A DNA stretch of 41,144 nucleotides from an uncultured Victivallales bacterium. GTDB lineage: Bacteria; Verrucomicrobiota; Kiritimatiellia; UBA8416; SLMC01. Shown here piece after piece: positions 14,803 through 39,260 of this stretch. The stretch spans positions 1 through 41,144 of the forward strand of contig CAZYAW010000105.1 in the NCBI GenBank assembly GCA_964646045.1, read 5' to 3'. The translations under genes and the position numbers were made by a program. How positions within the stretch are numbered: position 1 is the stretch's first letter; the number at the start of each line of letters is the position of its first letter. The notes under the pieces are model-generated. The model did no database searches. It had not been told where the DNA came from and saw only the letters and a program-made list of their open reading frames with translations.

Positions 14803-14806
<4 letters not shown>
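12926..14806 (-). CDS. lnt: Apolipoprotein N-acyltransferase
   Basis: N-terminal polytopic domain plus a CN-hydrolase domain with triad contexts [10 protein letters not shown] (Glu), [14 protein letters not shown] (Lys) and ALICFEDVF (Cys). The start ATG 14806 overlaps the secA stop (ATGA). The last 35 nt overlap the prfB start. Confidence 0.85.
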
Positions 14807-17865
<3,059 letters not shown>

Positions 17866-17890
17866 GGGGGAATCCTCGTTATAAATGACT

Positions 17891-18619
17891 TCACTTGCCC
17901 AGTTCCAGTCGTTTGGCCAGCCGTTCCGGCAGTCCGACCTTTCTGATCTTGGCCTGGGCGGCGGCGATGTCGTAGGGCAGTCGCCGGAACTCAATGGCGC
18001 GTTTTTCCATGTCGTACAGCACGTAGGAGGCCTGGGGGTTGCCGTCGCGCGGCTGACCGACGCTGCCGACGTTGACGTAGTACTTCATGCCCAGTGTCAG
18101 GCGCATGTTCTGGGGATCGAGTCTGCGCGACCGTCCGCTTTTCTCGAAGATGAGCGGTACATGGGTGTGCCCGTGAAAGCAGACGGAGGTGGACTGGTAG
18201 TTGAAGTGCGAATCGGCCTCCAGAGCGTCGAAGACATAGCCCCATTTTTCGGGCATGTCCAGCGTACTGTGCACCAGCGTAAAGCCGTCCACGCGCAGGT
18301 TGTACTTGAGTCCCTGCAAATAGCGAATCTGCTCGTCGGTCAATTGACGGCGGGTCCAGTCGATGACATTGGCCGCCAGCGGGTGAAAGTCGTCGAGACA
18401 TTCGTCGTGCGCGCAGTAGTGGTCGTGATTGCCGCGCGCCACGCTGCAACCGAGCGCGCGCACTTTTTCCAGACATTCCGCCGGGTTGGCGTTGTAGCCC
18501 ACGATGTCGCCCACGCACACGTAGCCCGTGGCGCCCTGTTGCTCGGCGTCGGCGAGCACCACGGTCAGGGCTTCCAGGTTGCTGTGAATGTCGCCCAGTA
18601 CGGCATACTTCTTTTTCAT
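17891..18619 (-). CDS. Metallophosphoesterase (calcineurin-like, YfcE/MJ0936-type)
   Basis: [14 protein letters not shown]...VCVGDIVGY...RGNHDHY...FHGHTH are the canonical metallophosphoesterase motifs. ATG 18619 is chosen inside the longer track ORF. Confidence 0.8.
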
Positions 18620-19314: not shown

Positions 19315-19744
19315 GTTTCCTCCATGGCCCGTCCGCAATCCGCCTGCGCGGCGCAATGGCCGTACTTCTCCGCACTGCGGAATAGCCGCTGTCAATGAGG
19401 CGTTTATGAATAAAAAATCAAAATAGACATCCGTCTCGCATCCGCGTTCCGTCCGTCAACTTCGGCATCCGCTCTCGCCCGGTCCGCGACAGCCACTTCT
19501 GCAGCGACAATATACACAAGGAATAGCGCCCCCGCCGCAATACGTCAAGCGACAAATTCCAGGCAAATTGTCACGGTTCGAAAACGCGAGAAATGATTCG
19601 CGCAAAGATCGCCAAGCCGGATGAAAACGGCTAGGCCTGCCGGAAGCACGCGTCTCTCGGACAAGGCTCTTCCGGGCAAGTGGAGCCATAGTCGGAGCCT
19701 GGCCGAAAAAATATTTTTTGTTGCGTATCGAAGGGGAGTAGACT

Positions 19745-19933
19745 ATGTTTCGGACGGATTGGGTTGGCCGGGGACTATTCCCGACCGTCGGCGCCGTTGC
19801 GATGACACGACAACTTGCGTGCGTTGGCTCGACTTCGGGAACCCATTGGCGGAGAGGCTGGAACCGGTCTGAACGGCGGACTGCTTCCGAAAAGACGAGC
19901 GGGCCGCACCCCGGCGCCACCACGAGATTATGA
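19745..19933 (+). CDS. Candidate 62-aa small ORF at the head of the envelope operon (speculative)
   Basis: ATG is preceded by GAAGGGGAG at 6-nt spacing, and the stop TGA overlaps the ATG of the next gene (ATGA). Third-position GC looks lower than in neighbouring genes, so coding status is uncertain. Confidence 0.25.
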   Translation: MFRTDWVGRGLFPTVGAVAMTRQLACVGSTSGTHWRRGWNRSERRTASEKTSGPHPGATTRL

Positions 19934-20805
19934 AGGTCGACGACAGCGAATTATGGATCTGGCGGCATTTCGCCGTCCGATTGCCCCGCGACTGGGAGAT
20001 GCTGCAGTTTTCCTGCAACGCTCGCACCGGCCGCTGCGCCTTTGCCGATCGGTATGCGTTTCGTTTCGAGCTGAGCTGGAACCGTGTGCCGGGTCCGCCC
20101 GACGTGGACCGCATGTTGTCCGATTACGCGGCGGAACTCATGCGGGACGGAGAAAGCCGTCCGCGCCGCGTCCGTCGCGCGGAGTGGTATGGTCTTGAAA
20201 TCAGGAACGGTCCCGAGTCCGCATCCCGCTACGGATGTTATATCGGCGATCATGGCTACCTGTTGGAGGCCGTGTTTCCATGGCCGAGTCGCGTGGACCG
20301 GCCTCTGGCGCACGCCGTTCTCGACAGCATACACGTGGAGACCGCGAATGCGGACGGATTCCGGCGCTGGCGCGCTTTCGGCATGGAAGTGCTGGCGCCG
20401 CCGGGGCTGGATCTGCAGTCCTGTCGCGTGTTGCCGGCGCAGGCCGAGATGGTGTTTGCGGACAAGCGGAGCCGACGCGAGTTGCGGGTGGAGCGTCTGG
20501 GCATGGTTTCCGAATGGCTGCGGGGCTCGCCGACCGACTGGGTCAAGAAGACCGCGCCGCCGCATATGGCGGAGGCGCCGGCGTGCGTTACGCAAAGGAA
20601 CGGACACGATATTGTCCGCCTGATCGGCAAATCGCGTGGCCTGCCGGGACGGCGGCGAGCGGTCGACGAACGGTGCGGCTGGCGCTGTCCGGAAAGCGGT
20701 CGTCTGTTCGGGCTGAGCGTAAAGGGCATGCCGGCGCCGTCGCCATCGCGGACGGCCTGGGCGGACTGCGTGGGTTGTTGCGCGGTCCGGAGCGCGGCGT
20801 TATGA
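19930..20805 (+). CDS. Hypothetical soluble protein with an internal tandem duplication
   Basis: 291 aa with no TM segments. The two halves share a W..F...L.P......S......FAD+....EL...R pattern (aa ~8-50 versus ~146-190). Its stop overlaps the next start (ATGA). Confidence 0.6.
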   Translation: MKVDDSELWIWRHFAVRLPRDWEMLQFSCNARTGRCAFADRYAFRFELSWNRVPGPPDVDRMLSDYAAELMRDGESRPRRVRRAEWYGLEIRNGPESASRYGCYIGDHGYLLEAVFPWPSRVDRPLAHAVLDSIHVETANADGFRRWRAFGMEVLAPPGLDLQSCRVLPAQAEMVFADKRSRRELRVERLGMVSEWLRGSPTDWVKKTAPPHMAEAPACVTQRNGHDIVRLIGKSRGLPGRRRAVDERCGWRCPESGRLFGLSVKGMPAPSPSRTAWADCVGCCAVRSAAL

Positions 20806-21185
20806 CGCGACCGGCGCAGCGCATGCAGGCCGACTGGCGTCGGATGCTGGACGCCGCGCCGCTCCGCAACCGCGCGGCGGCCGTGAAAACCGACGGCAAC
20901 GGCGAGCGGAGCATAACGGTGCCGCGCGAGCGGCCGTGGTGGCTGCGCATACCGCTCGTGGGGTGGGCCGTGGCCGTGGGGGAGAAACGTACGTTGAGAC
21001 TGGATCGGCTCGGTAGCGAAGTGTGGGACCTTTGCGACGGCCAACGGACGGTCGAGGGGATTGTCGATGATTTTGCGCAACGTCACCGCCTGACATTTCA
21101 CGAGGCTCGGGCGGCGGTGACGGTATACTTGAAGACGCTGGTTCAGCGCGGCGCGCTGGCGCTCGAGATGCCGGAGGAAAATTGA
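20802..21185 (+). CDS. PqqD-family (RiPP-recognition-element-like) small protein
   Basis: The C-terminal ~70 aa (LDRLGSEVWDLCDGQRTVEGIVDDFAQRHRLTFHEARAAVTVYLKTLVQRGALAL) match the PqqD winged-helix pattern. It is coupled at both ends by 4-nt overlaps. Confidence 0.7.
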   Translation: MTRPAQRMQADWRRMLDAAPLRNRAAAVKTDGNGERSITVPRERPWWLRIPLVGWAVAVGEKRTLRLDRLGSEVWDLCDGQRTVEGIVDDFAQRHRLTFHEARAAVTVYLKTLVQRGALALEMPEEN

Positions 21186-22669
21186 GCAAAGCTCCAATTC
21201 AGATTGCCGATCAGCCGCGGCTGTCGCTGCGGCGTATCGCCCATATCACGATGGACGGCATTCGCTATCGCGTATTCCGGTGCGCCGTGACGGTGGCGGT
21301 CATCGCCGTTGCCGTCGCCTTTCTGAACAACATCGTGAGCGAGAGCATCGTGAGACGGTCGGTAGGGACCGTTGCCCGACTGCGGCTGCGGCAGGGACGT
21401 CAGGTTCACGAATGGGCGGCACGGCTCACTGCGGCGGGAACGTCGGCCGACCTCCTAAAAGAGGTGGCCGACAGCCGGCCGGGCGATCGCGTCTATCGCG
21501 AGTGCGCCGGCTTTGGACGGTTCGGCGCCGCGGCGATGGCGTCTTTCCACCGCGCGGCCCGCACGGCCGTCGGCTATCTCTCCTTCTTCGAAGACCTGGA
21601 CTACGATCTGCGACGCCGACTGGTGCATACGGATCCCGGTGCGGCCGTTCTCGATCGCCTGGCGACGCCGTCCGGCATGGAGCGCTTCCGCCGCGCCCTG
21701 AACGAGATCAGGGCCGTTCGCTTCGTGTCGTCGCTCGACGCGTTGCAGCAGTTTCTGGACGAACGGTGGCTGCCGTTGAGGCAGGACGCGGAGCGTATTC
21801 TCGCGGGCCGGCGCGCGGCGATTCAGGACGTTGCTCGCGCACGGGCCGGGGTTTCCGTTATCGAGTCTCTCTCGCGCGCGGACGGCGCGTTCGGCGATAC
21901 GATCCGGGGGGCCGGATTCGAGTTCGACTCCGAACGGGTGGCCCCGGCCGTGGCGCGACAGGCCCGCGACCTGCTGGCCATGCGCCGCGTGGAGCAGACG
22001 ATCGAAGCCCAGAGCGTGCGCCGGCTGCTTTCGCGCGACGCCAGAGTCGCCCCGTCGGACGTCACGACCGTGCATCTGTGGCGTTTTCTGCGCAATCGCG
22101 CCCATGCGCGCGCGCTGCTGGCGGAAGAGGCCGAGAGCGTGTCGTCGCTCAAAAAAGTCCTGGAAGAGGACGACCTGGTCGCGCTCTCGGATCGGCGCAG
22201 AGAGGAGCGCGCGCTGACGCGTATCGGACGCGATACCGCCGGTGTCGGAACCGGCTGGCTCGGCATGGGAGAGCGCATCGGGTGGCTGATCGCCGTTTCG
22301 ATGCTGGTGTGCGGAATCGGTATTGCCAATGCCATGCTGGTGAGCGTGACGGAGCGTTTTCGCGAGATCGCCACCCTGAAGTGTCTGGGGGCACTGGACG
22401 GATTCATCCTGCTGCTGTTTGTGATGGAAAGCTGTCTGCTCGGCCTTGCGGGCGGCTTGCTGGGGGCGTTTCTGGGCAGTCTGATCGGCGCAGGCCGGGC
22501 GCTCTGGGAATTCGGTTTCTTTTTGCCGGGCGGCCTGCCGATCGGCGATCTTCTTCTGGGAATGGCTCTGTCGGTCGGCGCGGGAATGGCGCTGGCCGCT
22601 CTGGCCGCGGTATATCCGGCGTTCAAGGCCTCGCGCCTGGCGCCCATGGAGGCCATGCGCATTGACTGA
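21182..22669 (+). CDS. FtsX-family (MacB/LolCE-type) ABC permease with an atypical ~320-aa helical loop domain
   Basis: TM1 is at aa ~34-52. The C-terminal FtsX module reads IANAMLVSVTERFREIATLKCLGA...AAVYPAFKASRLAPMEAMR. The TTG start overlaps the upstream stop, and ATG 21251 is an alternative. Confidence 0.8.
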   Translation: MSKAPIQIADQPRLSLRRIAHITMDGIRYRVFRCAVTVAVIAVAVAFLNNIVSESIVRRSVGTVARLRLRQGRQVHEWAARLTAAGTSADLLKEVADSRPGDRVYRECAGFGRFGAAAMASFHRAARTAVGYLSFFEDLDYDLRRRLVHTDPGAAVLDRLATPSGMERFRRALNEIRAVRFVSSLDALQQFLDERWLPLRQDAERILAGRRAAIQDVARARAGVSVIESLSRADGAFGDTIRGAGFEFDSERVAPAVARQARDLLAMRRVEQTIEAQSVRRLLSRDARVAPSDVTTVHLWRFLRNRAHARALLAEEAESVSSLKKVLEEDDLVALSDRRREERALTRIGRDTAGVGTGWLGMGERIGWLIAVSMLVCGIGIANAMLVSVTERFREIATLKCLGALDGFILLLFVMESCLLGLAGGLLGAFLGSLIGAGRALWEFGFFLPGGLPIGDLLLGMALSVGAGMALAALAAVYPAFKASRLAPMEAMRID

Positions 22670-23414
22670 AACGACGACCATGGAACGCATCATCGTGCGA
22701 ACGATCGATCTCAAGAAGGAGTACGTCATGAAGGGCGTGCTCACGCCCGCTTTGCGCGGGGTGGATCTGGAGATCGCGACGGGCGAGTTCATGGCCGTGA
22801 TGGGACCGTCGGGTTCGGGCAAGAGCACGTTCTTCAACATGATCGGCGCGCTGGATCGGCCGACATCGGGTCGCGTGTTCATCGACGAGGTCGACGTGGC
22901 TCAGCTCACGGCCGAGGAACTGGCCTACGTTCGCTGTCAGAAGATCGGCTACATCTTTCAGACGTACAATCTGATCCCCTACATGACGGCGATCGAGAAC
23001 GTCTCCATCCCCATGGCTTTCGGCGGCGTACCGCCCGACGACGCGCGCGACCGCGGCATGGCGCTGCTGGACCTCGTCGGTCTCAAGGAGCGCTGGTTTC
23101 ATCGTCCGATCGAAATGTCGGGCGGTCAGCAGCAGCGTGTGGCGATCGCCCGTTCCCTGGCCAACGAACCGACCGTTCTGCTGTGCGACGAACCAACGGC
23201 AAACCTGGATCTTGCGACGGGCCGGGAGATTCTGGACATTCTCCAGCGCCTGAACACCGAGCGCGGCGTCACGATTGTCTGCGCCACGCACGATCATCGC
23301 GTCATGAAGATCTGCGACCGTTTGCTGTGGATTCGGGACGGCCGCGTTTCACGACTGGCCAAGCGGAGCGAATTGCGCATTGAGGCCGGATCCATCGGGG
23401 GGGTGGCGGAATGA
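22662..23414 (+). CDS. ABC transporter ATP-binding protein (MacB/LolD/FtsE-type), copy 1
   Basis: [51 protein letters not shown] 22662 is preceded by GGAGG at 9 nt, and ATG 22680 is an alternative. Confidence 0.88.
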   Translation: MTETTTMERIIVRTIDLKKEYVMKGVLTPALRGVDLEIATGEFMAVMGPSGSGKSTFFNMIGALDRPTSGRVFIDEVDVAQLTAEELAYVRCQKIGYIFQTYNLIPYMTAIENVSIPMAFGGVPPDDARDRGMALLDLVGLKERWFHRPIEMSGGQQQRVAIARSLANEPTVLLCDEPTANLDLATGREILDILQRLNTERGVTIVCATHDHRVMKICDRLLWIRDGRVSRLAKRSELRIEAGSIGGVAE

Positions 23415-26400
23415 TGGCAACAGGGAACATCCGGCCGGCGGGGTCGTTCGCCGGCGCGATGCTCGCGGGCCTTCTGTGTCTGGCGGCCGCCGACGCGCGC
23501 GGCGAGCGTTTTCTCGACGACTGCCGCGCTCTGACCGCCGCGCCGCATCGCTTGACGGGCACGGAAGAAGGTCGGGCGGCCGGCGACTACATCCGGGGCC
23601 GCCTGGAGGAGGCGGGGGTGGACCGTGTCCTGGTACAGCCGTTTGCGGTGCCGCAGTGGCGGGTCGAACAATGTTCGCTGACGATGGACGGCGAAGCCGG
23701 AGCGCTGTCGCTGCATCCGTTGCGGGCCAATGGCATTGTGCCCCCCGTGACGCCGCCCGAGGGCCTCGCCGGTCCCGTTGTGCATGCGGGGAACGGATCG
23801 GCGGCCGCCGTGGCGGGCAAGAATTTGCGGGGCTCCATCGTGGTGATGGACTACGACTGCGAAGAGGCGTGGCTGCACGTTTTCCGTCAGGGCGCGGCGG
23901 CCGTCGTATTCGTGCGCGCCGGACCCGCTCGCGCTCAGCAGCGGCTGCATGTGCTGGCCAACGCCAATCTGCCGCGCTTCTTTTACGACGGAGCGGCGTC
24001 GGACCTGACCGAAGGCGGGCGCGCCACCATTCACAGCCGCATTGTTTGGGAGAACAGCGTGGGGCGCAATATTGTCGGCTGGGTGCGCGGCTCCGCGCCG
24101 GAGTTCGGGCAGGACGCGGAAGAAGCGCTCGTGCTGGCCGTTCCGTACGACAGTTTCGGCGAAGTGCCCGGGCGCAGTCCCGGCGCGCGCGGGGCCGCCA
24201 ACTGCGCCGCGCTTCTGCGCCTGGCCGGTCGTCTGTCGGCGCAGCGACCCCGACGGCACGTGCTGCTGCTTTTCCTGGACGGACAGGCCCGCTACCATGC
24301 CGGGGCCCGGGCGTTGGTCCGCGCGTTGGAACCGGTCGACAGCGCCGCCGGTCTGCCGGCGCGTCAGGGCTGGTATCGCAGCGAAGTGGAATTTCTTGAC
24401 GAGATGGAACGGCTGCTCGCGCTCGCGCATCCTTTTCGCGAAAGTTCCGACGCGCGTCGCTCTCTGCTGCAGTCCCTCTCGACTCGGGCCAAGGAACAGG
24501 CCACACTGGTCGCGGACGCCATGTACCGACTGCGTGAAGAAAAGAGAGATTTACGGAACCGGGAGGGAGACGGCGCCGGGGCGGGGGAGGCGGTCCGGGA
24601 TCGCCTGACGCGGATCGACACATTGCTGGCAGAGACATGGCAGCCGCAGCGGGACGCCTGGAGCAACGTTCAGCGCGCGCTGGGTCGGAGCCGACAGGGG
24701 CGCGCCCGCGACGAGACCGGCTCTCTTTCGGCGGCCGAGCAGGCCCTGTTGGACGGGATCGTGCAGGACCAGCGCGCGGAGATCGGCGCTCGTCGGGCCG
24801 AACTCGCGATTACCGGCCGGAACCTGGCGGCCGATGCCGAGATACAGGAACTGCTCGGGAAGCGCGCGATCGTGCTGTATGCCTCTCTTTTGCTGGGAGA
24901 CCGCTCGCCCGCATGGGGCCTGGCCATCGGCGGCGACTCCGGATTGCACTCGGAAAACGATCATCCGGGACTGTACGGACAGATACAGGCCGTCTTCCTG
25001 GAGGCCTTCCAGCGTCTCGCCGCCGCCGACGCTGCGGCGTCGGGATTTGTCCGCCAATCCGCCGACCAGTCTCTCGATCGTACCCGCATGATGTGGGGGG
25101 CGCCCTACATGGTTCATGGCGGCGAGGTGGCGGGTTTGCTGGGCGTCTACAATGTGGCGCTGGTCACGTGCGGAGAGAATATGGAGCGCGAGGGTACCCC
25201 GGACGATGTCCTGGAGGCTCTCGACATCGCGCGGCTGCGGGCGCAGGCGGACGATATCGGGCGCCTGCTCTTCGGCGGCGCGGGGACGCATGCCGTGGCT
25301 AGTCAGGAGCGCCTCTCGCTGCGGCGCGGCGTCAATCCCAGCGCGGGATACAGCCTGGCGCGTTTTGAAAACGGTCGCGTGGTCGGTCCGCGGGTCATGG
25401 GCGCGCTGCCGGGCAGCGCCATGCCCAACCAGCCCGTCCCCGGCGCCATGCTGCAGGTCTTCGCCACGCCGCCGGCCAGTCTGACCTTCCAGACCGCCCA
25501 CCCCTATGCCTTTGAGAATTTCATGGTGTTGCGGACGGATCAGCGCGGGGCGTACAGTCTGGGGCCGCTGGCGGCGCAGCCCTCGCACTTGCGCAACAGA
25601 CTGCGCGCCGTGACCCTCGCCTTCGATGCGCAGGGGGTTCTCGCGTCCGCTTCCGGGCTCAACGAGGAAATCGGGCGCGTCTGGTACCGGATGAACACGT
25701 TCTATTGCCAGTCCGGCGAACAGATTCTGCCGGTCCAGTCGGAAACGCGCCGCCGGTCGAGCGGGGACATCCTCCTGATGTCGGCGCGCAACAACGTCAA
25801 CATCGATCCCGCGCGACATTTCGTCGAAGCCCTGGACGGCGTGGTCGGCTGGTTCTGCGACGACCGGGAGAAGGGGATCAAGCTGTTCGGGTTGTCCCGC
25901 ATGGTCGCGCTGAACAACGGTCCGGCGACCCTGGCTTCCGACCGGCGCGAAACGAACGAAGAAGCCCTGCGGCAAGCCGCCGGAACCGGTTTCCCGCAGG
26001 ACGCGGACTGGCGCGACATTCAGCCGTCCGTCCGCTCCGCAGCGGATTTGTGGCGTTTGAACGACGCGCGGATCGGATTGCTGCGCAGTCGGCAAATCCG
26101 CGACCGCTCCCTGGCCGAACTGCATGCGCGCAGCGAAGACCTCCTGTTGGGCGCGGCGGCGACGACGGATCCGGGGCGTCGCACGGCGCTCGCCGCCGGC
26201 AGCTTTCTGTCGTCCGCGCCGGTGTACAGGGCGACCCGCAAGACGCTGGACGATCTGGTCTTCGCGGTGCTCCTGCTGCTGGGACTCTCCGTGCCCTTCG
26301 CCTTTGCCATGGAACGGGTGCTGGTGGGGGCGCGCACGATCTACCGGCAGATCGTCTGGTTCGGATTGTTTTTCCTGGCCACCTTCACTTTGCTTTATCT

Positions 26401-28312
26401 CGCGCACCCGGCCTTCGCCGTGGCCAATACGCCCATGATCATCTTCCTGGGTTTCACCATTGTCGTGATGTCGGCGCTGGTCATCGGCGTCATCATGCGC
26501 AAGTTCGAGGCGGAACTGCGCGCTCTGCAGGGGTTGTCGTCCAGCGCGCACAGCGCCGACGTGTCCCGGGTGACGACCTTTCTGGCCGCCATGCAGATGG
26601 GGATTTCCACCATGCGGCGGCGTCCTCTGCGTACGGCCCTGACCGCCACCACGGTGACTCTCCTGACGTTTACGATTCTTTGTTTTGCCTCTTTCGCGAC
26701 CCAATTGGGCATTGTCCGTTTTTTCGTCGGGTCGTCTCCGTCGTATGAAGCGGTCTGGATTCGCAGCGCCAGTTGGCAGCCGATCAGCCGGGATTTTGCG
26801 GTCATGCTGCGCGACCGGTGGAACGCCGCAGTCGTTGCGGAACGGTACTGGCTGTCTCCGCGCAACGAGGAACGCGCGGGCGTTCTGCTAACGCGCGAGG
26901 ACGGCACAAGGCCCCTGGCCCTGCGCGGCGTGCTCGGCCTGGATCCGCGCGAAATCGGCCGACGCAAAGATCTGGCCGAGATCTTCGATACGAACCTGGT
27001 CGGACGCGTACTCCTGACCGACACGGTGGCGCACGCGCTGGGCGTACGCGAAGGCGATACGGTGCTGGCGGGCGGTGAACGGCTTGTCGTCGGCCGCCCG
27101 TTCGATCCGGTCAAGGCGTCGGTGGTCGTGGATATGGACGACAGCAGCGTGCTGCCGGTCGATTTTCTTGCCGCCTCGTCCTCGTCCGCACAGGCCGCGC
27201 AAAGCGACGAAAGCGACATGGACGAAACGACGGCCGATTCCAATTGGTCCAATTTGTCTCCGGATTTCGTATTGGTAGTGGACACGGCGACCGCCCGGCG
27301 ACTCGGCGCCGCACTGCAGGCCGTGACGATGTATGCCGAGGGCGAAGCGCAGGCGGCGGAGATGGCCGACGACATCGCGCGCATGGCGACCTTCCCGGTG
27401 GCCGTTACCCTGCGCAACGGCGTCTATCGACAGCGCCTCGGCGTGATGCTGGCGGCCAGCGGCGCCAAGGACCTCTTTTTCCCCATTCTGCTGGGCGGGC
27501 TCGTCGTGTTCGGCACCATGTTGGCGTCCGTCGCCGACCGCGAGCGCGAGATTTACACGTTCAGTTCGCTGGGTCTGGCGCCGCGGCACGTCGCTTCGCT
27601 GTTTTTCTCCGAAGCCACGGTCTACGCCGTGATCGGCGGGATGGGCGGATACCTGATCGCCCAGGCCATGTTGAAAATCCTGACGATTCTGTCCGATCAC
27701 GGCCTGGCCAGGGTGCCGGAAATGAACATGTCTTCGACCAATACCATTGTCACGATTCTGATTGTCATGGCCACGGTTCTGGTTTCCGCCGTCTATCCCG
27801 GGATCAAGGCGTCGCGGTCGGCGAATCCCGGCCTCATGCGTTCCTGGCGTCTGCCCGAGTTGCGGGGCGACGAACTGGAATTCGTCTTTCCCTTCACGGT
27901 CTCGCAGTACGACATTACGGGCGTGGTCAGTTTTCTCCGGGAGCACTTTCAGAACCACGCCGACACGGGCATGGGCCGCTTCATGGCCGAGCATCTCCGC
28001 ATTACGCGCTCGTCCGAGGGCGAATTGGGCTTCGCCGCGGACGTTATGCTGGCGCCGTTCGATCTGGGGGTCGGTCAGTCGTTTGCGCTGACAAGCATTC
28101 CGAGCGGCATTCCCGGCATCGACGAGGTTCGGCTGGTCTTGCGCCGCCGATCCGGACAGCCGCGCGACTGGCATCGCCTCAACAAGGCTTTCATGAACGA
28201 TCTGCGCCGGCAGTTTCTGCTGTGGCGATCCTTGCCGCGCGAAACCATGGATCTGTATCGGCAGCAGACGCTGCAGGAACTGGGAGCAATGAGGACGGCG
28301 TCCGTTTCTTGA
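23411..28312 (+). CDS. 1633-aa fusion: signal/anchor, PA plus degenerate M28 peptidase-like ectodomain, unknown ectodomain, 3 TM, FtsX-type permease module, C-terminal cytosolic domain
   Basis: ATGA-coupled to the upstream ATPase.
- N-terminus: hydrophobic AMLAGLLCLAAADA.
- PA-like segment: GSIVVMDYDCEEAWLHVFRQGAAAVVFV.
- M28-like core: NIVGWVRG...VLAVPYDS...PGARGAANC...LLLFLDGQARYHAG.
- Three TM segments at aa ~948-1030.
- FtsX module: MRRRPLRTALTATTVTLLTFTIL, a ~250-aa loop, then ADREREIYTFSSLGLAP...VSAVYPGIKASRSANPG. Confidence 0.85.
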   Translation: MMATGNIRPAGSFAGAMLAGLLCLAAADARGERFLDDCRALTAAPHRLTGTEEGRAAGDYIRGRLEEAGVDRVLVQPFAVPQWRVEQCSLTMDGEAGALSLHPLRANGIVPPVTPPEGLAGPVVHAGNGSAAAVAGKNLRGSIVVMDYDCEEAWLHVFRQGAAAVVFVRAGPARAQQRLHVLANANLPRFFYDGAASDLTEGGRATIHSRIVWENSVGRNIVGWVRGSAPEFGQDAEEALVLAVPYDSFGEVPGRSPGARGAANCAALLRLAGRLSAQRPRRHVLLLFLDGQARYHAGARALVRALEPVDSAAGLPARQGWYRSEVEFLDEMERLLALAHPFRESSDARRSLLQSLSTRAKEQATLVADAMYRLREEKRDLRNREGDGAGAGEAVRDRLTRIDTLLAETWQPQRDAWSNVQRALGRSRQGRARDETGSLSAAEQALLDGIVQDQRAEIGARRAELAITGRNLAADAEIQELLGKRAIVLYASLLLGDRSPAWGLAIGGDSGLHSENDHPGLYGQIQAVFLEAFQRLAAADAAASGFVRQSADQSLDRTRMMWGAPYMVHGGEVAGLLGVYNVALVTCGENMEREGTPDDVLEALDIARLRAQADDIGRLLFGGAGTHAVASQERLSLRRGVNPSAGYSLARFENGRVVGPRVMGALPGSAMPNQPVPGAMLQVFATPPASLTFQTAHPYAFENFMVLRTDQRGAYSLGPLAAQPSHLRNRLRAVTLAFDAQGVLASASGLNEEIGRVWYRMNTFYCQSGEQILPVQSETRRRSSGDILLMSARNNVNIDPARHFVEALDGVVGWFCDDREKGIKLFGLSRMVALNNGPATLASDRRETNEEALRQAAGTGFPQDADWRDIQPSVRSAADLWRLNDARIGLLRSRQIRDRSLAELHARSEDLLLGAAATTDPGRRTALAAGSFLSSAPVYRATRKTLDDLVFAVLLLLGLSVPFAFAMERVLVGARTIYRQIVWFGLFFLATFTLLYLAHPAFAVANTPMIIFLGFTIVVMSALVIGVIMRKFEAELRALQGLSSSAHSADVSRVTTFLAAMQMGISTMRRRPLRTALTATTVTLLTFTILCFASFATQLGIVRFFVGSSPSYEAVWIRSASWQPISRDFAVMLRDRWNAAVVAERYWLSPRNEERAGVLLTREDGTRPLALRGVLGLDPREIGRRKDLAEIFDTNLVGRVLLTDTVAHALGVREGDTVLAGGERLVVGRPFDPVKASVVVDMDDSSVLPVDFLAASSSSAQAAQSDESDMDETTADSNWSNLSPDFVLVVDTATARRLGAALQAVTMYAEGEAQAAEMADDIARMATFPVAVTLRNGVYRQRLGVMLAASGAKDLFFPILLGGLVVFGTMLASVADREREIYTFSSLGLAPRHVASLFFSEATVYAVIGGMGGYLIAQAMLKILTILSDHGLARVPEMNMSSTNTIVTILIVMATVLVSAVYPGIKASRSANPGLMRSWRLPELRGDELEFVFPFTVSQYDITGVVSFLREHFQNHADTGMGRFMAEHLRITRSSEGELGFAADVMLAPFDLGVGQSFALTSIPSGIPGIDEVRLVLRRRSGQPRDWHRLNKAFMNDLRRQFLLWRSLPRETMDLYRQQTLQELGAMRTASVS

Positions 28313-28358
28313 GAACCCTGTAAGCGGCGGGCGCTACAACGCAGAGGGAACCGACGGT

Positions 28359-30389
28359 ATGTCACGCAACCAACGACACGACATCGACAAGGAACTGCAG
28401 ACGTTTCGGGACGCGATGCAGGTGCCTTCCACCTTCGAGGAGGGTTTCCGCTGGTCCTCGCTGCTGGGAGCGCTGTTCGTGGCGCTGGTCATGGTGCCCG
28501 GAGCGATCTACATGGGATTGCTGGCCGGGGTCGGCATCGGTCCGGCGGCCCAATGGGTCACGGTGATCCTTTTTATCGAAGTCGCGCGCCGCGCGCACCG
28601 ACACCTCTCCAAGTCCGAGATCTTCGTCCTCTACTTCATGGCCGGGGCCATGATGACCGGTCTCGGGATCGGCGTGGACGGCGGACGCATGAACGGCTTG
28701 CTCTGGCGGCAGTATTTTGCCGTCAGCGACGCGGCCCGCTCCTCCGGCATCACCGAGCAATTGCCGGCATGGTACGCGCCGAGTCCCGAATCGGATTCCT
28801 ATGCCCTTCGTTCGTTCCTGCATCCCGCGTGGATGGCGCCGATCGGCCTGCTCGTCTTCGGCACTTTTTTCGGCCAACTGGCCAACCTCGTACTGGGCTA
28901 TGGTCTCTTTCGCGTGACGAGCGACATCGAAAAATTGCCCTTCCCGATGGCGCCGGTGGGGGCTCAGGGCATCCTGGCGGTGGCCGAAGACGTCGAGGAG
29001 AGAACGCGCAAGGACAGCGAACGCTCCTGGCGCTGGCGCGTGTTCGGCATCGGCGGAGCGCTGGGTCTGGTTTTCGGGGCGGTCTACCTGCTTCTGCCGA
29101 CGCTGACGGGCGCCCTGACGACGGCGTCCGTCCAGATCTTCCCCATACCGTTCTCCGATTTCACGCATCAGACCGGGCATTACCTGCCGGCGGTCGCGAC
29201 CGGCATCTCCTGGGATTTCGGGCATCTCGTTTTCGGCATGGTCATGCCTTTCTTCGGCATGCTGGGCAGTTTCATCGGCTTGCTCGTCACGGTGGTGGCC
29301 AACCCCGTCCTGTACGAGGTCGGGTTGCTCAACTCGTGGACCTCGGGGGACGACACCGTCTGGACCATCTTCAAGAACAACGTCGATTTCTACTTCAGCT
29401 TCCAGATCGGCATCGGGCTCGCCATCGCGCTGGTCGGCGTCTATCAGGTCCTGCGGAGCATCCGCCGCGCGAAGGCGAAGAAGAGAGCGGGGAGCATCAT
29501 GGCGCCGCCGCCGGGGCGCGGCGACATCCGGGGAATCTTCGTGGTCCTGTGCTACTTCGTTGTGACCGCCATCTATATCTCGGCGTCTCTGGCTCTGCTC
29601 GTGTGGGACGAGGGGGAGTGGAACGACAACGTCCAGCGGGTTTTCTACGTGCTGCTGGGGCTCGGCCTGGTCTATACGCCGTTGATCAGCTACGTCACGG
29701 CGCGCCTCGAGGGCATGGTCGGCCAGGTGGTGGAAATCCCCATGATCCGCGAGGGGGCCATGATTCTGAGCGGCTACCGCGGCGTGGCCTGCTGGTTCCT
29801 GCCGCTGCCGGTCGCCAACTACGGCCACATGACCGTCTTCTACCGGCAGTGCGAGCTTACCGGCACGAAGTTCACCAGTATCTGGAAGACGAAAGTGATC
29901 CTGTATCCGATCATCCTGATCAGCTCCATCATGTTCATGAACTTCATCTGGAAACTCGACCAGATTCCTTCGTCCGCCTATCCCTATGCCCAGAAGATGT
30001 GGAAACTGCAGGCCGCCAACGAGTGCATTATGCTGTCCTCGACGCTGGGCGACTACTCCATGTTCGAGGAGGCCTTCAACTGGATGTATCTGGGCGCGGG
30101 CACGGTCTTCGGCGGCCTGCTTTTCGGACTGTTGAGCGCGTGCGGGGCGCCGGTCATGCTGGTTTACGGGATTGTGCGCGGTCTGGGACAAAGCATGCCC
30201 CACGCGATCATCCCCCAGTTCATCGGGGCGCTGATCGGACGGTTCTATTTCCAAAAACGGCTCGGTCTGAAATGGCGACAGTATATTCCGGTCGTGGCCG
30301 CGGGATTCTCCTGCGGCATGGGCCTGATTACCACGTTGGGGGTCGGGATCACGTTCCTGAGCAAGGCCGTGATCAAGCTGCCCTTCTGA
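28359..30389 (+). CDS. 676-aa polytopic membrane protein, distantly OPT-superfamily-like
   Basis: At least 14 hydrophobic segments. An EKLPFP motif (aa 191-196) and the C-terminal FIGALIGRFY...YIPVVAAGFSCGMG resemble OPT-type motifs and the two paralogs downstream. GAGGGA lies upstream of the ATG. Confidence 0.7.
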   Translation: MSRNQRHDIDKELQTFRDAMQVPSTFEEGFRWSSLLGALFVALVMVPGAIYMGLLAGVGIGPAAQWVTVILFIEVARRAHRHLSKSEIFVLYFMAGAMMTGLGIGVDGGRMNGLLWRQYFAVSDAARSSGITEQLPAWYAPSPESDSYALRSFLHPAWMAPIGLLVFGTFFGQLANLVLGYGLFRVTSDIEKLPFPMAPVGAQGILAVAEDVEERTRKDSERSWRWRVFGIGGALGLVFGAVYLLLPTLTGALTTASVQIFPIPFSDFTHQTGHYLPAVATGISWDFGHLVFGMVMPFFGMLGSFIGLLVTVVANPVLYEVGLLNSWTSGDDTVWTIFKNNVDFYFSFQIGIGLAIALVGVYQVLRSIRRAKAKKRAGSIMAPPPGRGDIRGIFVVLCYFVVTAIYISASLALLVWDEGEWNDNVQRVFYVLLGLGLVYTPLISYVTARLEGMVGQVVEIPMIREGAMILSGYRGVACWFLPLPVANYGHMTVFYRQCELTGTKFTSIWKTKVILYPIILISSIMFMNFIWKLDQIPSSAYPYAQKMWKLQAANECIMLSSTLGDYSMFEEAFNWMYLGAGTVFGGLLFGLLSACGAPVMLVYGIVRGLGQSMPHAIIPQFIGALIGRFYFQKRLGLKWRQYIPVVAAGFSCGMGLITTLGVGITFLSKAVIKLPF

Positions 30390-30403
30390 AGAGACACGAC
30401 GCT

Positions 30404-31135
30404 ATGCAAGACACTCTGGTACAGGTGCGCGATCTGAGCAAGACCTTTCGGCTGCGCGGCGAGGTTTTGCACGCGCTCAAGAACATCGAACTGGATATTT
30501 ACACGGGCGAGTACCTGTCCATCATGGGGCCGTCCGGCTCGGGCAAGAGCACCCTCTTCAACATGATCGGCGGTCTGGACCATCCGTCGGAGGGTTTCGT
30601 CGAGGTGGCCGGAATCCGGCTGGGCGACTTGAGGCCCCGGCAACTGGCGTACTTGCGCGGCAACGAAATCGGCTACGTTTTTCAGTCCTACAACCTGTTG
30701 CCGGCCTACGGGGCGCTGATGAACGTCTGTATGCCGCTGCTCTTCAGCGGACAGACGCCCCAGGCGGCCGAACGCCGGGCCACGGAAGTCCTGGAGCGGG
30801 TCGGGCTGGGCGATCGCATCGACCACCGGCCCGACGAGCTGTCCGGCGGACAGCAGCAGCGCGTGGCCATCGCGCGCGCGCTGGCCAATTCCCCGTCCAT
30901 TATTCTGGCCGACGAACCGACGGCCAATCTCGACCTGGAAACCGGCCGGCAGATCATCGACCTGCTGGCTTCGCTGTCGAGCGAGTTCGGCGTAACCGTT
31001 ATCAGCGCCACGCACGATCACCAGATGCTGGCCGCATCCGACCGCATCCTGTGGATTAAGGACGGCGCCGTGGACCGTCTGGAACGTCGCGAAGATCTGG
31101 ACATCCAGGTCGGAGTGATCGAGGACGAAGTCTAA
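30404..31135 (+). CDS. ABC transporter ATP-binding protein (MacB/LolD/FtsE-type), copy 2
   Basis: [54 protein letters not shown] 30404 lies 14 nt after the upstream stop. The 860-aa track ORF is a shadow upstream of this point. Confidence 0.88.
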
Positions 31136-33567
31136 CCGAGAAACACTTTGTACCGTACGGGCGTCTGGCCCGTGGCCCAGTAGTAGACCGCGCCGCTGGC
31201 CGCGACCAGGATGCCGGCGATCATTTCTCCGGCGATCAGTCCGAAGATCAACGGCTTCATGTTGCGGCATAGCCGCCAGCCCCCGTAGCGTTCCGCCACC
31301 GTCTTGACCAGCGCGCCCGCCAGAAAGGACGCCGACAAGCTCAAGGCGTCGTTGGTGCCCAACACCAGAAACATGAGCGGGTGCAGCGGCCATCCCGGAA
31401 AGCGCCGTCGGCACCAGGTGAAAACGAAGACGAGCGTCATGGCGACGGCAAAGGCCGCGACATATTCGCGGCGCGGCGCCAGGGCGCGCAGACCGCCCAG
31501 TTTCCCGGCCTGCGCGGCGCCCAGTTGTCCCTGCGACGCCAGCAGACGCCGCACCGCCACGTCGTTTTCGTAGGGGGCGGTTGGAACGCGGTCGACGATC
31601 CATTCGTCGCCCGTGCGCATGGTGCCGTAGTTGTACTGCCAGTACAGGGTGGCCGCCGCCGCGACCACCAGAGCGACGCCCACGGCGACGGTGCCGCTCA
31701 ACGCGATTTTGCCGGGCCGCACGCCTTTGCTCTCGCAGAGCCGCAAGGCGCTGAAGGCCAGGCCCATGACCATTTCCCTGTAGGTGATGAGCAGCATCGA
31801 CGACAAAATGCCCATGATCAGCAGGCGGTCCGGTCCGACGGCCTCGGCGCCCAGCAAGCCCCACAGCAGGGCGCCGGTGTACCAGCTCGATTGGGTTGTG
31901 AATACGCCGCCCTCCGCCAGGAGCCGGCTGACTACCGTGGAGATCACGACGGCGCCGGCCGCGTACAGGATGCCCAGCCACAACGGCAGGCCGACCCCGT
32001 GCAGGATCAGGACAAAGGCGGCCAAGCCGACGATAAACACCCGAGATCCCCATATCTCGTGCGGACGAACCTCGTCCATGGCGCGCGTCAGTCCGAGGGC
32101 GCGCGCGAACACGGCGCGCAAATGGCGGTGCGCCGCGGCAAACAGCGCGATAAACATGGCCACGTAGGCGCCCGCGTGCAGGGAGGGCTGAATGCCGGGA
32201 CTGAACGTTCCGTATCCCGCGCTGATGTCGACCCCGTACCGAGTGACCAGAGTGCCGACGACGGCCCAGTAGAGCCAGGGCGCGACGCCGACCGAAAAAG
32301 AGATGTCGCGCGACAGCAGGTAGGCGAACCCGAAGGCCGCAAAACCGATGCGCGGCACGAACAGCCGCTGACCCGGCCCGGAACTCAGAGCCGGGAACAG
32401 ATCCTTCAGGGCTCGCAGGTCGGCATAGGTGCGGACGGGAATCAGCGTGCCGGGCCACCACTCTGCCAGGTAGTTGTTTAGATGGATCGCGAGCACGACG
32501 CCCATGCCCGCCAGAAACCAGCGGGAACGGAGCGTGGCGGGCAGACCGCCCCCTTCGCCGGGCAGGATTTCGGTCAGGAACTGTACCGTCGGGTAGGGGA
32601 GTCGTTCGTGTTCGACCCACTGCCGGTGCAGCACCAGGGCCAGTCCGATCACGGCGATCGACAAGGTCAGGACGAGGGGCATCCAGAACGACCAGGGCCG
32701 TATCCAGGACGAGAAAGGGACGTTTTGCGGCGCAATATTCTCGTTTCCTTCCCGCATGCCGACCACGAAGGGGTCCAGTACGGTCGAGGCGTTTCGGGAA
32801 TCGACATCCGTCAGCATGCGTCGCGGCGCGCTCTCCACGGGTCCCGGGCGTCGCGCTTCGACGGCGCCGCCGGCCAGCAAGTCCAGGACGCCGCGGTTGA
32901 GTCGCACGCGCTCGTCCGGATCGAGGTCCGACAACCGGCGCGCCATGAGTTGCCGCATGTACGAGGGCAGATACATCTTGTCGTGCCGTACGGCGGACTG
33001 CCAGTCGACGGGCTCCCGCAGGAAGGCATTGACCCCCTGGCAGATCCGTCTGCGGTGGTCCTCGCGGTCGGCCCGCTCTTCCGCGTCTTGTTCGAGCGTG
33101 ACGCGCAGTTCGGCGGGCAGATGCTTCCATAACAGTACGGCGGTCGCGCTCGCATCCGGCCGGCGTCCGCGGCCGAGGGTCGCGGTCAGCGCGGCCCAGT
33201 CGCGCACTTGATTCGGCGACAGTTCCGCGGCCGTCCCTTTCCAGGCCGGTCGCAGGCGGGCGTAGTGCTGCGGCATGATCATGATGTTGTTAAAGAAATG
33301 CATCAGACCGCGTCCCGGCACAAAACAAGAAAAGAGGGTGATTCCGGCGGCGACGGCCAATTCCGGCGCCGAGAACGCCAGTCGCCGTTTCAGTCTGGCC
33401 AGCAGGGGATTGAGGATCAGTACGAAGAGCGCCAGCGTTCCGAAGACGGCGAAGGGCGCAAAATTGCCGGTCATCTCGCTGCTCAGCATCACTTTGTCGT
33501 TGAAAAAAGTGAACAGAGCCAGGAACAATGCGCCCGCAAATCCCAGCGTCAGCGATCGCCATGTCAT
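31132..33567 (-). CDS. 811-aa polytopic membrane protein, paralog of 33608-35644 (OPT-like; possibly the DUF6785/DUF6784 type)
   Basis: N-terminal TFFNDKVM, then LVLHRQWVEHERLPYPTVQF, then C-terminal KPLIFGLIAGEMIAGILVA. AGGAG lies 9 nt upstream of the ATG. The DUF names are recalled from memory, not verified. Confidence 0.75.
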   Translation of the reverse strand: MTWRSLTLGFAGALFLALFTFFNDKVMLSSEMTGNFAPFAVFGTLALFVLILNPLLARLKRRLAFSAPELAVAAGITLFSCFVPGRGLMHFFNNIMIMPQHYARLRPAWKGTAAELSPNQVRDWAALTATLGRGRRPDASATAVLLWKHLPAELRVTLEQDAEERADREDHRRRICQGVNAFLREPVDWQSAVRHDKMYLPSYMRQLMARRLSDLDPDERVRLNRGVLDLLAGGAVEARRPGPVESAPRRMLTDVDSRNASTVLDPFVVGMREGNENIAPQNVPFSSWIRPWSFWMPLVLTLSIAVIGLALVLHRQWVEHERLPYPTVQFLTEILPGEGGGLPATLRSRWFLAGMGVVLAIHLNNYLAEWWPGTLIPVRTYADLRALKDLFPALSSGPGQRLFVPRIGFAAFGFAYLLSRDISFSVGVAPWLYWAVVGTLVTRYGVDISAGYGTFSPGIQPSLHAGAYVAMFIALFAAAHRHLRAVFARALGLTRAMDEVRPHEIWGSRVFIVGLAAFVLILHGVGLPLWLGILYAAGAVVISTVVSRLLAEGGVFTTQSSWYTGALLWGLLGAEAVGPDRLLIMGILSSMLLITYREMVMGLAFSALRLCESKGVRPGKIALSGTVAVGVALVVAAAATLYWQYNYGTMRTGDEWIVDRVPTAPYENDVAVRRLLASQGQLGAAQAGKLGGLRALAPRREYVAAFAVAMTLVFVFTWCRRRFPGWPLHPLMFLVLGTNDALSLSASFLAGALVKTVAERYGGWRLCRNMKPLIFGLIAGEMIAGILVAASGAVYYWATGQTPVRYKVFLG

Positions 33568-37608: not shown

Positions 37609-37842
37609 TAACGACGGAACAATATAAAACGTGGCAGTAGCGATCGGCGGTAATAGGTATACGGATTTCGCGGCGGACGCAAGCTCCAAAGTTCAGACTT
37701 CCTGACCTCGCAGGAAAACGCACAACCCGGTGTCTGGCCTTGAAAAGCCGTCCGCGGGTTTTCTATGGCCTGACACCATCCGGATGCAAGGAGTGACGAG
37801 AAGCCACGCATCTGAACCGCCAACAACGCCAAGAATGTTGGG

Positions 37843-37876
37843 GTAGCCACAAAAAGTCACGAGTAGCCACAAAAAG
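37843..37876 (+). promoter_or_regulatory. Two 14-bp direct repeats GTAGCCACAAAAAG, 20 bp apart; candidate operator of the antitoxin gene
   Basis: Exact repeats at 37843-37856 and 37863-37876, lying 47-80 nt upstream of ATG 37923. The function is inferred. Confidence 0.35.
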
Positions 37877-37922
37877 GGGCGACAAGCCCGCTCTCTCGCC
37901 AATCATTAGCGTGGAGGTAGGA

Positions 37923-38192
37923 ATGATTGCAACATACAAAGCGCGCTTGCTCGGCAACATGCTGGATTGGCAGGAAGAATCTCCGCCTGTTTCGTCTTCC
38001 ACTGTTTCGGTTCTGGTAACGGTGCTTCCCCATCCAGACACGCCCTTGCGCGCACATGAGCCTACAGGTAGCAGGCTGGCGGCTATCCTGAAAAGGCTGG
38101 CTCGGGAAAACACGGTTCCATCCATACCGAACCCCGTCGAATGGCAAAAAGAAATGCGCCGAGACAGGGTGTTGCCCGGACGAGAGGATTAA
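37923..38192 (+). CDS. Putative type II antitoxin (partner of a PIN-domain toxin)
   Basis: 89 aa. GGAGG lies 5 nt upstream of the ATG. The C-terminal EWQKEMRRDRVLPGRED resembles antitoxin tails seen upstream of vapC genes. Its stop abuts the ATG of a PIN-like ORF. Confidence 0.5.
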   Translation: MIATYKARLLGNMLDWQEESPPVSSSTVSVLVTVLPHPDTPLRAHEPTGSRLAAILKRLARENTVPSIPNPVEWQKEMRRDRVLPGRED

Positions 38193-38294: not shown

Positions 38295-38313
38295 CCTGGC
38301 GCGGACATTCGCA

Positions 38314-39234: not shown

Positions 39235-39260
39235 AGATGCGACGCATATGCGTCGCATCT
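39235..39260. repeat. 26-bp perfect palindrome AGATGCGACGCATATGCGTCGCATCT
   Basis: Read directly. Its arms contain the same CGACGC/GCGTCG half-sites as the termini of repeat copies A, B and C. Confidence 0.8.

Follow-up and report, generated by a model that had tools for sequence, protein, structure and literature searches.

ATP-binding cassette (ABC) systems of type VII, among them MacB, LolCDE, FtsEX, YbbAP and BceAB, are known for performing ATP-driven mechanical work in the bacterial envelope, and to our knowledge all of the characterised systems act on separate partner proteins. Cytoplasmic ATP turnover drives periplasmic movements in these systems, and partners such as EnvC, LolA, MacA-TolC or TesA are engaged in trans (PMC5985334; PMC12646458). 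Here, a 41,144-nucleotide stretch of DNA from an uncultured Victivallales bacterium (contig CAZYAW010000105.1 of assembly GCA_964646045.1; the whole stretch is referred to as the window) was analysed with respect to a gene for a protein of 1633 amino acids (aa), hereafter the giant, in which a peptidase-like ectodomain and an FtsX-type permease are joined in one chain. The gene is real, uninterrupted and non-chimeric. We see about an even chance that the giant forms the large subunit of an ABC mechanotransducer of type VII (MacB/FtsX/LolCE-type) and has the periplasmic working domain built into its own chain.

One conserved open reading frame

The open reading frame (ORF) of the giant spans 23411..28312 on the + strand, starts with ATG, comprises 1633 codons with zero internal stops and ends with TGA. 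The GC content at its three codon positions (0.69/0.49/0.80) matches that of other, demonstrably real genes of the 65%-GC window, while the long shadow ORFs in other frames of the window do not have this pattern, confirming what a sequence-only reading of the same DNA had described as one uninterrupted, strongly coding ORF. A word-indexed search returned 88 homologs with identities of 34-75%, nearly all of them 1560-1990 aa long, from metagenome-assembled genomes (MAGs) of Lentisphaerae, Kiritimatiellae, Planctomycetes/Phycisphaerae and Sumerlaeia, which have been deposited as 'hypothetical', 'M28 family peptidase' or 'FtsX-like permease family protein'. In a scan of GTDB species genomes a relative was found to be encoded at 277 places, 80 of which were retrieved for the comparison of loci; one cultured carrier, Oligosphaera ethanolica DSM 24202, is among these 80. 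The number of undivided genes was counted over 82 related loci from independent assemblies, and in 78 of them the N- and C-terminal halves lie within a single uninterrupted ORF. Furthermore, representatives of 50% identity clusters were searched exhaustively with HMMER for matches to a profile of the C-terminal half (aa 946-1633). At E ≤ 1e-3 this gave 5745 representatives, of which 1362 reached E ≤ 1e-30; the best 150 matches are almost all 1500-2100 aa long, with the matched part at the C-terminal end. A few short proteins among the top matches start inside the stalk that leads to the membrane and have no signal peptide, so that they are truncated gene calls.

At a few loci the giant is found in pieces (L003, with the parts P0085/P0086; L071; and L084, with P0067). 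The breaks in L003 and L071 are frameshift-like, and the adjoining OPT-like gene of L003 is broken as well. In L084, on a 5.97-Mb contig of GCA_041320515.1, P0067 (9897..13426) has kept the giant up to aa 1187 (aa 32-1187) and then continues in an out-of-frame tail, and the upstream ATPase gene is reduced to its last 34 codons; this locus is a decayed copy of the system, and the cluster can thus be lost or fragmented. The remnant sits amid unrelated genes and adjoins a gene for a ParE toxin. The broken loci look like sequencing errors or gene decay, and an assembly chimera or misjoin of the giant was ruled out on the basis of the 78 undivided loci, the 88 homologs and the search with the C-terminal half. 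The fusion is therefore genuine, which settles the two doubts that had accompanied its first description, namely that a frameshift or an assembly error might split the ORF and that the N-terminal part might be a separate gene misjoined to it.

The permease core and the C-terminal domain

The part of the giant that assigns it to the type VII permeases is an FtsX/MacB-type module (26642..27817, +; aa 1078-1469). Pfam FtsX (PF02687) matches aa 1357-1469 with 43.6 bits against a cutoff of 25.5 (E 3.6e-11) and is also matched by all homologs tested, and the PDB sequence matches of the module are MacB, LolC, LolF and 5xu1, which are weak when the single sequence of the giant is used. Hydropathy places FtsX transmembrane (TM) helix 1 at aa 1078-1100, a periplasmic domain of 250 aa at 1101-1350 and TM2-4 at 1352-1465, within 1351-1469; an acidic Ser/Asp/Glu stretch near aa 1250-1280 of the periplasmic loop falls in a region that varies within the family. 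With PF02687, a predicted four-TM unit that has a large extracytoplasmic loop and both ends in the cytoplasm, and adjoining genes for MacB/LolD/FtsE-type ATPases, the giant shows the sequence features expected of a type VII ABC permease. The module is preceded by three extra TM helices (26252..26500, +; aa 948-1030), seen in hydropathy (948-968, 980-1000 and 1008-1030), in invariant columns and in the match to the PADLOC profile PDLC01991, and by a linker (26501..26641, +; aa 1031-1077) that leads to FtsX TM1 and is placed in the cytoplasm by the predicted topology. Both are among the most conserved parts of the protein, with P962, F963, E968, R969, P1000 and the STMRRRP motif of the linker being invariant. 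According to this topology aa 30-947 and 1101-1350 are periplasmic and aa 1031-1077 and 1470-1633 cytoplasmic, in agreement with the orientation that the FtsX module requires.

One other interpretation of the membrane part was considered and rejected. In it, the N-terminal anchor and the three extra helices would be a degenerate first FtsX module, which would turn the giant into an 8-TM duplicated permease. This is topologically possible, but an hhalign comparison of the three extra helices with TM2-4 gave a probability of 0.5%, and the N-terminus has the appearance of a signal peptide that varies within the family and can be cleaved. Duplicated permeases such as YbbP, BceB and ADOP contain two FtsX modules in one polypeptide, and Pfam finds a single FtsX stretch in the giant; the NCBIfam ADOP model covers aa 1339-1472 only, with 36 bits against a cutoff of 622, and the giant is not called a duplicated permease because its three extra TM helices are unlike FtsX TM2-4.

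The chain ends in a cytoplasmic domain of 164 aa (27818..28312 including the stop codon, +; aa 1470-1633) with the order β-α-β4-α-α, as delimited by the A2 alignment and an AlphaFold2 (AF2) model. It has a mean column identity of 63% in the A2 alignment, with many invariant Arg and Trp residues. The AF2 model, computed from 27 sequences with a predicted local distance difference test score (pLDDT) of 86.6, shows an antiparallel β-meander with helices, a fold that is not Rossmann-like. The domain has no sequence match in PDB, Pfam or PADLOC, and Foldseek matches the model almost exclusively to helix-grip proteins of the START/Bet v 1/SRPBCC type, with weak scores (E ≥ 2e-3, TM-score 0.3-0.43).

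The periplasmic ectodomain

The chain begins with a signal peptide (23411..23497, +; aa 1-29), seen in hydropathy as a hydrophobic segment (aa 9-29), which is followed by a probable signal peptidase I site between AADA and RG, where it would be cleaved. This N-terminus is poorly conserved in the alignment A1 of 72 full-length family members, which also provided the family profile and the column counts given below. The following region combines a PA domain with an M28-like peptidase fold that is present in two halves, the first together with the PA domain at 23498..24325 (+; aa 30-305) and the second at 24866..25285 (+; aa 486-625), the latter being assigned from the order of its motifs and its conservation in A1. 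Between them lies an insertion of ~170 aa (24326..24865, +; aa 306-485), and because it splits the fold, the Pfam M28 alignments of each tested member end early, near profile positions 80-96 out of 193. In the giant, Pfam M28 covers aa 229-304 with 18 bits and stays below the cutoff of 21.3, whereas the homologs reach 23-38 bits and exceed it. The insertion is charged, low in Pro and Gly and matched in PDB only weakly by coiled coils (SPC25 and TRIM5, E 0.03-0.07), and is probably helical or coiled-coil. Compared with PDB, the family profile matches the PA-aminopeptidase 2ek8 over aa ~24-308 at E 1.6e-12, YwaD (6hc6) at E 1e-9, keratinase KP1 at E 4e-5, nicastrin at E 1.6e-5 and nicalin at E 3.6e-3, while the sequence of the giant alone gives a weak match to 2ek8.

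The M28 fold is thus present, but most of the residues that define an active M28 metallopeptidase, its co-catalytic zinc ligands and its catalytic Glu, are not. The HxDS motif is n-l-D-s in the family consensus and PYDS in the giant, the DDxSG motif has become s-p-g-A-r-g-A (SPGARGAAN in the giant) and the xEExG motif n-q-a-r-g-h-a-G (DGQARYHAG in the giant). The first His ligand is a His in 12 of the 72 members and a Pro in the giant, the bridging Asp is Gly in 70, the metal Glu is Ala in 58, and the position of the catalytic Glu is occupied by Gln in 48 and by Glu in 12. The fourth and fifth ligands are kept, with Asp at D497 in 67 of 72 and His at H569 in 60 of 72 members, and the second half of the fold further conserves H490, E572 and RE-G-T-P-D-D at 593-599. 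With most of the ligand columns replaced, the canonical co-catalytic zinc site is unable to form and has been lost family-wide. SPGARGAAN, the motif found in place of DDxSG, hardly varies among the members and therefore points to a site that was re-purposed rather than simply decayed, with a selected, non-catalytic function. Since the canonical catalytic site has been lost, current annotations like 'M28 family peptidase' probably mislead. Pfam Nicastrin (PF05450) matches two members of the family near or below the threshold (P0060 with 24.7 bits against a cutoff of 25) and does not match the giant itself, which resembles the nicastrin/nicalin type in having an M28-like, membrane-anchored ectodomain without a catalytic site, but is not assigned to it by sequence.

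The remainder of the ectodomain was modelled with AF2 from an alignment of 26 sequences (aa 626-947, pLDDT 83.6). It comprises a β-rich region (25286..25960, +; aa 626-850), of which aa ~646-833 form about two β-sandwich domains, and a stalk (25961..26251, +; aa 851-947) of three long helices at aa 872-893, 899-917 and 921-946 (model residues 247-268, 274-292 and 296-321), which continues into the first TM helix. No Pfam and no PDB sequence match was obtained for aa 626-947, and a Foldseek search of the model against PDB returned nothing significant (best E 0.011, TM-score below 0.2), the matches being β-sandwiches of pilin, Ig and dioxygenase proteins. The domain order proposed in the sequence-only reading has thus held up along the whole chain, from the signal or anchor at the N-terminus through the PA and M28-like region, the unassignable region of ~300 aa, the three TM helices at ~948-1030 and the FtsX module with its loop of ~250 aa and acidic linker to the cytosolic C-terminal domain of ~160 aa without a recognised motif. 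What the present analysis adds is the insertion at aa ~306-485, the lost metal ligands, models of the two unassigned regions and, from the structural search that had been suggested for the C-terminal domain, the START/Bet v 1-type matches.

The gene cluster

The giant is a member of a translationally coupled operon on the + strand (19930..31135), whose genes were called by codon-position GC and translation. The first gene encodes a protein of 291 aa (19930..20805, +), which is supported by its GC3 frame and is syntenic in 52 loci; it has no match in Pfam, NCBIfam or PDB, and a comparison with the C-terminal domain of the giant revealed no relation. Its stop is overlapped by the start of a gene for a PqqD-like protein of the peptide-chaperone/RRE type (20802..21185, +; 127 aa; Pfam PqqD E 2e-10), which is also syntenic. 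The longer ORF at 20235..21185 (+) is a composite, in which the last 127 codons, from 20802, are the real part. A second FtsX-type permease of 495 aa follows (21182..22669, +; Pfam FtsX E 1.9e-14; syntenic), which is 27% identical to the giant in TM2-4. The usual MacB-type permeases have a mixed α/β Porter/Sabre periplasmic domain, from which the ectodomain of ~310 aa in this permease differs, being charged, low in Pro and Gly and, judged by this composition, helix-prone. Between this permease and the giant lies the gene for a LolD/MacB-type ABC ATPase (ATPase 1; 22662..23414, +; 250 aa) with canonical Walker A and B, signature and H-loop motifs, the stop of which overlaps the ATG of the giant. 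Downstream of the giant (23411..28312, +) are the genes for a polytopic membrane protein of the OPT/YSL family (28359..30389, +; 676 aa) and for a second LolD/MacB-type ATPase (ATPase 2; 30404..31135, +; 243 aa), identified by its canonical motifs and by NCBIfam. Here again the ORF at 28553..31135 (+) is a composite, with only the last ~243 codons, from 30404, being real; the upstream parts of both composite ORFs are shadow frames of neighbouring genes. LolD is the best NCBIfam match of both ATPases, with scores below the equivalog cutoffs and similar scores for MacB, FtsE and DevA. Convergent with the operon are two paralogous genes for polytopic membrane proteins with DUF6785 and DUF6784 (31132..33567 and 33608..35644, both on the - strand; Pfam E 4.8e-63 and 5.5e-72), the products of which are 37% identical. 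On the other side of the operon, an intergenic leader of ~530 nt (19396..19929) with a lower GC content of ~0.59 separates it from the divergent ispD. The leader contains one sigma-70-like site (19568-19597) and has no Rfam match or known RNA, no riboswitch and no convincing small precursor-peptide ORF.

The arrangement is highly conserved. Where the sequence leaves room for the neighbour, the OPT-like gene directly follows the giant in 72 of 72 loci and is itself followed by an ATPase gene in 64 of 68, while an ATPase gene lies directly upstream of the giant in at least 58 of 69 loci and the gene for the 495-aa permease farther upstream in at least 58 of 66. In 45 loci (e.g. L001-L003), DUF6785 genes lie within the cluster or next to it. 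The cluster of eight to nine genes is syntenic in distant genomes of Lentisphaerae, Kiritimatiellia, Verrucomicrobia, Planctomycetota and Sumerlaeia, and it is among the most conserved uncharacterised clusters seen here across the first four of these. The most conserved gene of the cluster, above the giant, encodes the OPT-like protein, which has a mean column identity of 68% and an identity of 65-77% across the phyla of the Planctomycetes-Verrucomicrobia-Chlamydiae (PVC) group. Its homologs number over 3500 and go by the names 'peptide transporter' or 'OPT/YSL family transporter', and Pfam OPT is matched by 20 of 25 members of its family (best E 7.5e-12). Such a close association of an OPT-family protein with ABC components is by itself unusual; among the 120 best OPT-like homologs none is fused to an ATPase. 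A possible relation between the OPT-like protein and the DUF6785 proteins was considered: hhalign aligned them colinearly over ~500 columns with a probability of 11% (E 0.0027) and with a common E-x-L-P-F/Y-P motif, and Pfam OPT has no match among the DUF6785 members.

Proposed function

A type VII mechanotransducer with a built-in working domain could operate as follows. After cleavage of the signal peptide, ~920 residues would be located in the periplasm, beginning with the PA and M28-like domains with their helical insertion and continuing with the two β-sandwiches and the three-helix stalk, followed by seven TM helices, namely the three extra ones and the four of the FtsX module with its 250-aa periplasmic domain, and by the 160-residue domain in the cytoplasm. 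The giant would pair with the 495-aa FtsX permease and with one or both of the LolD-like ATPases, and ATP binding and hydrolysis would be transmitted through the TM helices and the stalk, so as to move the ectodomain. Rather than working as an enzyme, the disabled peptidase domain would bind or gate the substrate, in the manner of nicastrin in γ-secretase. Substrate might then be passed to or from the OPT-family and DUF6785 proteins, which would provide the membrane path, and the C-terminal cytoplasmic domain may be a regulatory or ligand-sensing module. The built-in ectodomain would serve as a substrate receptor and may, by analogy, substitute for a partner in trans.

Several points weigh against this proposal. 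The coupling of the stalk to the TM helices and the helical nature of the insertion are both putative. The residues that remain in the M28-like domain, D497, H569, H296, H490, D247 and D290, may form a remodelled metal site or support another kind of catalysis. The assignment of the C-terminal domain as START-like is weak at the TM-scores and E-values given above. A peptide or a protein N-terminus is the most likely substrate, and is favoured because PA/M28, OPT and PqqD are all peptide-handling families, an argument from family names. With two permeases and two ATPases, a single, fully heteromeric transporter is as conceivable as two separate, homodimeric ones, and the cluster encodes no outer-membrane or adaptor component that would indicate the destination of a substrate.

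The sequence-only reading had seen in the ectodomain a partner-like protein fused in cis and had considered the architecture unusual. The fusion stands and is conserved, whereas the fused domain is not an EnvC- or PcsB-like partner but a PA-M28 pseudo-peptidase, attached N-terminally through the three extra TM helices and outside the periplasmic loop of FtsX. The replacement of a trans-acting partner by this domain is an analogy. The architecture is indeed not among the MacB-family arrangements listed in a 2018 review (PMC5985334), and neither an M28-FtsX fusion nor the gene cluster is described in the searchable literature, in which DUF6785/DUF6784 are not mentioned either. It is not rare, however; a large PVC family has already been deposited with generic annotations, and PADLOC profiles capture part of the core of this family.

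A bolder version of the proposal, which we regard as unlikely, is that the cluster encodes an undescribed envelope machine and a hallmark of the PVC group. The two FtsX permeases and two ATPases would form a fully heteromeric type VII ABC motor, in which a nicastrin-like pseudo-protease captures or gates peptides or proteins in the periplasm, coupled to OPT/DUF6785 channels in the membrane and a PqqD-type chaperone in the cytoplasm, while the cytoplasmic ligand-sensing domain controls the cycle. If true, this would represent a new ATP-driven route of peptide or protein trafficking and a bacterial counterpart of the nicastrin principle.

Alternative explanations

Two alternatives borrow the function of a characterised type VII system, and both are quite unlikely in our view. 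According to the first, the giant is an FtsEX-like regulator of hydrolases of the cell wall or envelope, in which the dead metallopeptidase and its helical arm play the role of EnvC and switch a separate hydrolase. In line with such a role, a probable helical insertion interrupts the catalytically dead metallopeptidase fold, the permease that bears it is FtsX-type and has an FtsE/LolD-like ATPase, and the ectodomain of the second permease is helix-prone; the precedent is FtsEX-EnvC (PMC7668044). However, there is no Pfam match to LytM/M23, CHAP, NlpC/P60 or amidase domains in the giant or in the conserved cluster, nor another hydrolase gene in the latter; M28 is unrelated to M23/LytM, and the conserved OPT-like, DUF6785 and PqqD partners would be left unexplained. 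Moreover, the family of the giant occurs in lineages of Planctomycetota as well as in PVC lineages that contain FtsZ. FtsZ is absent from many Planctomycetota.

The second of these alternatives is an extractor of lipids, lipoproteins or other hydrophobic molecules, like LolCDE or YbbAP-TesA, in which the motor would draw such a molecule from the inner membrane and the helix-grip-like cytoplasmic domain would bind a lipid. Precedents exist among the type VII systems (PMC8333309; PMC12646458), LolD is the best, albeit sub-cutoff, match of both ATPases, and the structural matches of the C-terminal domain are almost all lipid-binding START/Bet v 1 folds. Yet the ATPases score similarly for MacB, FtsE and DevA, the START-like similarity does not exceed a TM-score of 0.43, no LolA-like or hydrolase partner is present in the cluster, and the OPT-like and PqqD partners point elsewhere.

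It is improbable that the giant is an active, membrane-tethered M28 aminopeptidase, which trims periplasmic peptides while the transporter moves its products or substrates. The detection of the M28/PA fold, the name 'M28 family peptidase' that NCBI gave to some members, the retention of D497 and H569 together with several other conserved His and Asp residues, and the adjoining OPT-family 'peptide transporter' would be in line with such an enzyme. It is opposed by the column counts, with Gly in place of the bridging Asp, Ala in place of the metal Glu, Gln in place of the catalytic Glu and a first His that is seldom kept, and by nicastrin and nicalin being the closest non-enzyme relatives of the family profile.

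Less probable still is an antiviral-defence membrane effector, related to the CARF_m8-LolE_TM proteins and switched by a nucleotide second messenger. This possibility arises from PADLOC, where the profile PDLC01991 ('CARF_m8--CARF_LolE_TM') matches aa 953-1516 with E 1.1e-52 and 177 bits (profile positions 82-598 of 810) and PDLC01990 ('CARF_m8--CARF_Beta-galactosidase_LolE_TM', 1791 positions) matches the FtsX part with E 7.6e-26; three distant homologs show the same core match. However, only the membrane core is matched, the ectodomain and the C-terminal domain scanned on their own giving no PADLOC match. About 210 positions of PDLC01991 (~600-810) are not matched by the giant, and this unmatched C-terminal part should be a CARF-like domain according to the name and the lengths of the model. 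CARF domains are Rossmann-like, and the giant is not filed as a CARF protein because the predicted fold of its C-terminal domain, an antiparallel sheet with helices, is not. Furthermore, the cluster is syntenic, vertically conserved across whole phyla and located beside housekeeping genes, with no CRISPR or cyclase genes. Since the PADLOC profiles match the core and not the end domains, there is a wider set of proteins in which this core of seven TM helices is combined with different domains on one side or the other. In agreement with the role proposed above for the C-terminal domain, the comparison suggests a regulatory module at the cytoplasmic end that can be exchanged.

The weakest explanation, an artefact caused by chimeric assembly or by read-through from one gene into another, could appeal to the few related loci with a fragmented gene (L003, L071, L084/P0067), but has a negligible chance given the one-ORF arrangement in nearly all loci, the broken neighbours or out-of-frame tails of the exceptions, the uniform base composition and codon bias along the gene and the self-consistent predicted topology.

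Other features of the window

The remaining genes of the window have housekeeping functions and encode RlmN, an ABC-F protein, RNase R, RF2, Lnt, SecA, IspD and YchF. The Lnt ORF (12926..15451, -) overlaps the 3' end of secA (14803..17994, -) by ~650 nt; its Pfam match starts only at residue 256, and the true start is probably located well downstream of the first start codon. SecA has 1063 aa, and the DEAD-like match, for a profile of 290 positions, extends over residues 54-545, a length that the preprotein cross-linking domain explains only in part, so that a large insertion is likely. The right end of the window (37800..41144) has a GC content of 0.53-0.58, contains genes for a glutathione peroxidase and an AAA_14/DUF4143 ATPase and may be of different origin.

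Comparison with known systems

As in the type VII permeases MacB, FtsX, LolC/LolE, YbbP and BceB, the giant has an FtsX-type four-TM unit, in which TM1 and TM2 flank a large periplasmic domain, and adjacent LolD/MacB-type ATPases, and the operon contains a second, divergent FtsX permease, as for LolC/LolE. Unlike these permeases, it bears an N-terminal ectodomain of ~920 aa, attached through three additional TM helices, and a 160-aa cytoplasmic domain at the C-terminus, without a second FtsX repeat, and no MacA/TolC, LolA, EnvC or TesA-type partner is present in its cluster. The family of the giant would thus place the working domain in cis and add extra TM helices and a cytoplasmic domain to the type VII scheme. 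The core of three TM helices and FtsX module is common to the giant and the PADLOC profiles PDLC01991 and PDLC01990, as is the first β-α of the C-terminal domain, and PDLC01990 is also giant-sized with a large N-terminal part; the profiles do not, however, match the ectodomain of the giant or the greater part of its C-terminal domain, for which no CARF-like (Rossmann) fold is predicted. By analogy, FtsEX-EnvC likewise places a catalytically dead metallopeptidase-fold domain with a helical arm on a type VII motor. EnvC, which consists of a coiled coil and a degenerate LytM (M23) domain, is however a separate protein that binds the periplasmic domain of FtsX, whereas the dead domain of the giant is of the M28 type and covalently linked at the N-terminus, with no hydrolase target encoded nearby.

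With respect to the ectodomain, the best relatives of aa ~24-308 are the Aneurinibacillus aminopeptidase 2ek8 and Bacillus YwaD (6hc6), with which the giant shares the arrangement of the PA domain in the M28 fold. These are soluble, active di-zinc enzymes of ~420-455 aa, while in the giant the ligands are replaced and the fold is split by the insertion of ~170 aa. Nicastrin of γ-secretase and nicalin of the BOS complex resemble the giant in having an M28-like fold that has lost its zinc site and is located at the membrane. By contrast, the giant is bacterial, has its PA domain arranged as in the bacterial PA-aminopeptidases and is fused to an ABC permease instead of being held by a single TM anchor, and no presenilin-like or TMEM147-like partner is seen; the likeness is a weak one and could stem solely from a common M28 ancestry. 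In the proposed mechanotransducer, the working domain would nevertheless be a dead-peptidase fold, the same fold that eukaryotes use as the gatekeeper of γ-secretase, in a conserved system that is open to experimental test in the cultured carrier O. ethanolica DSM 24202.

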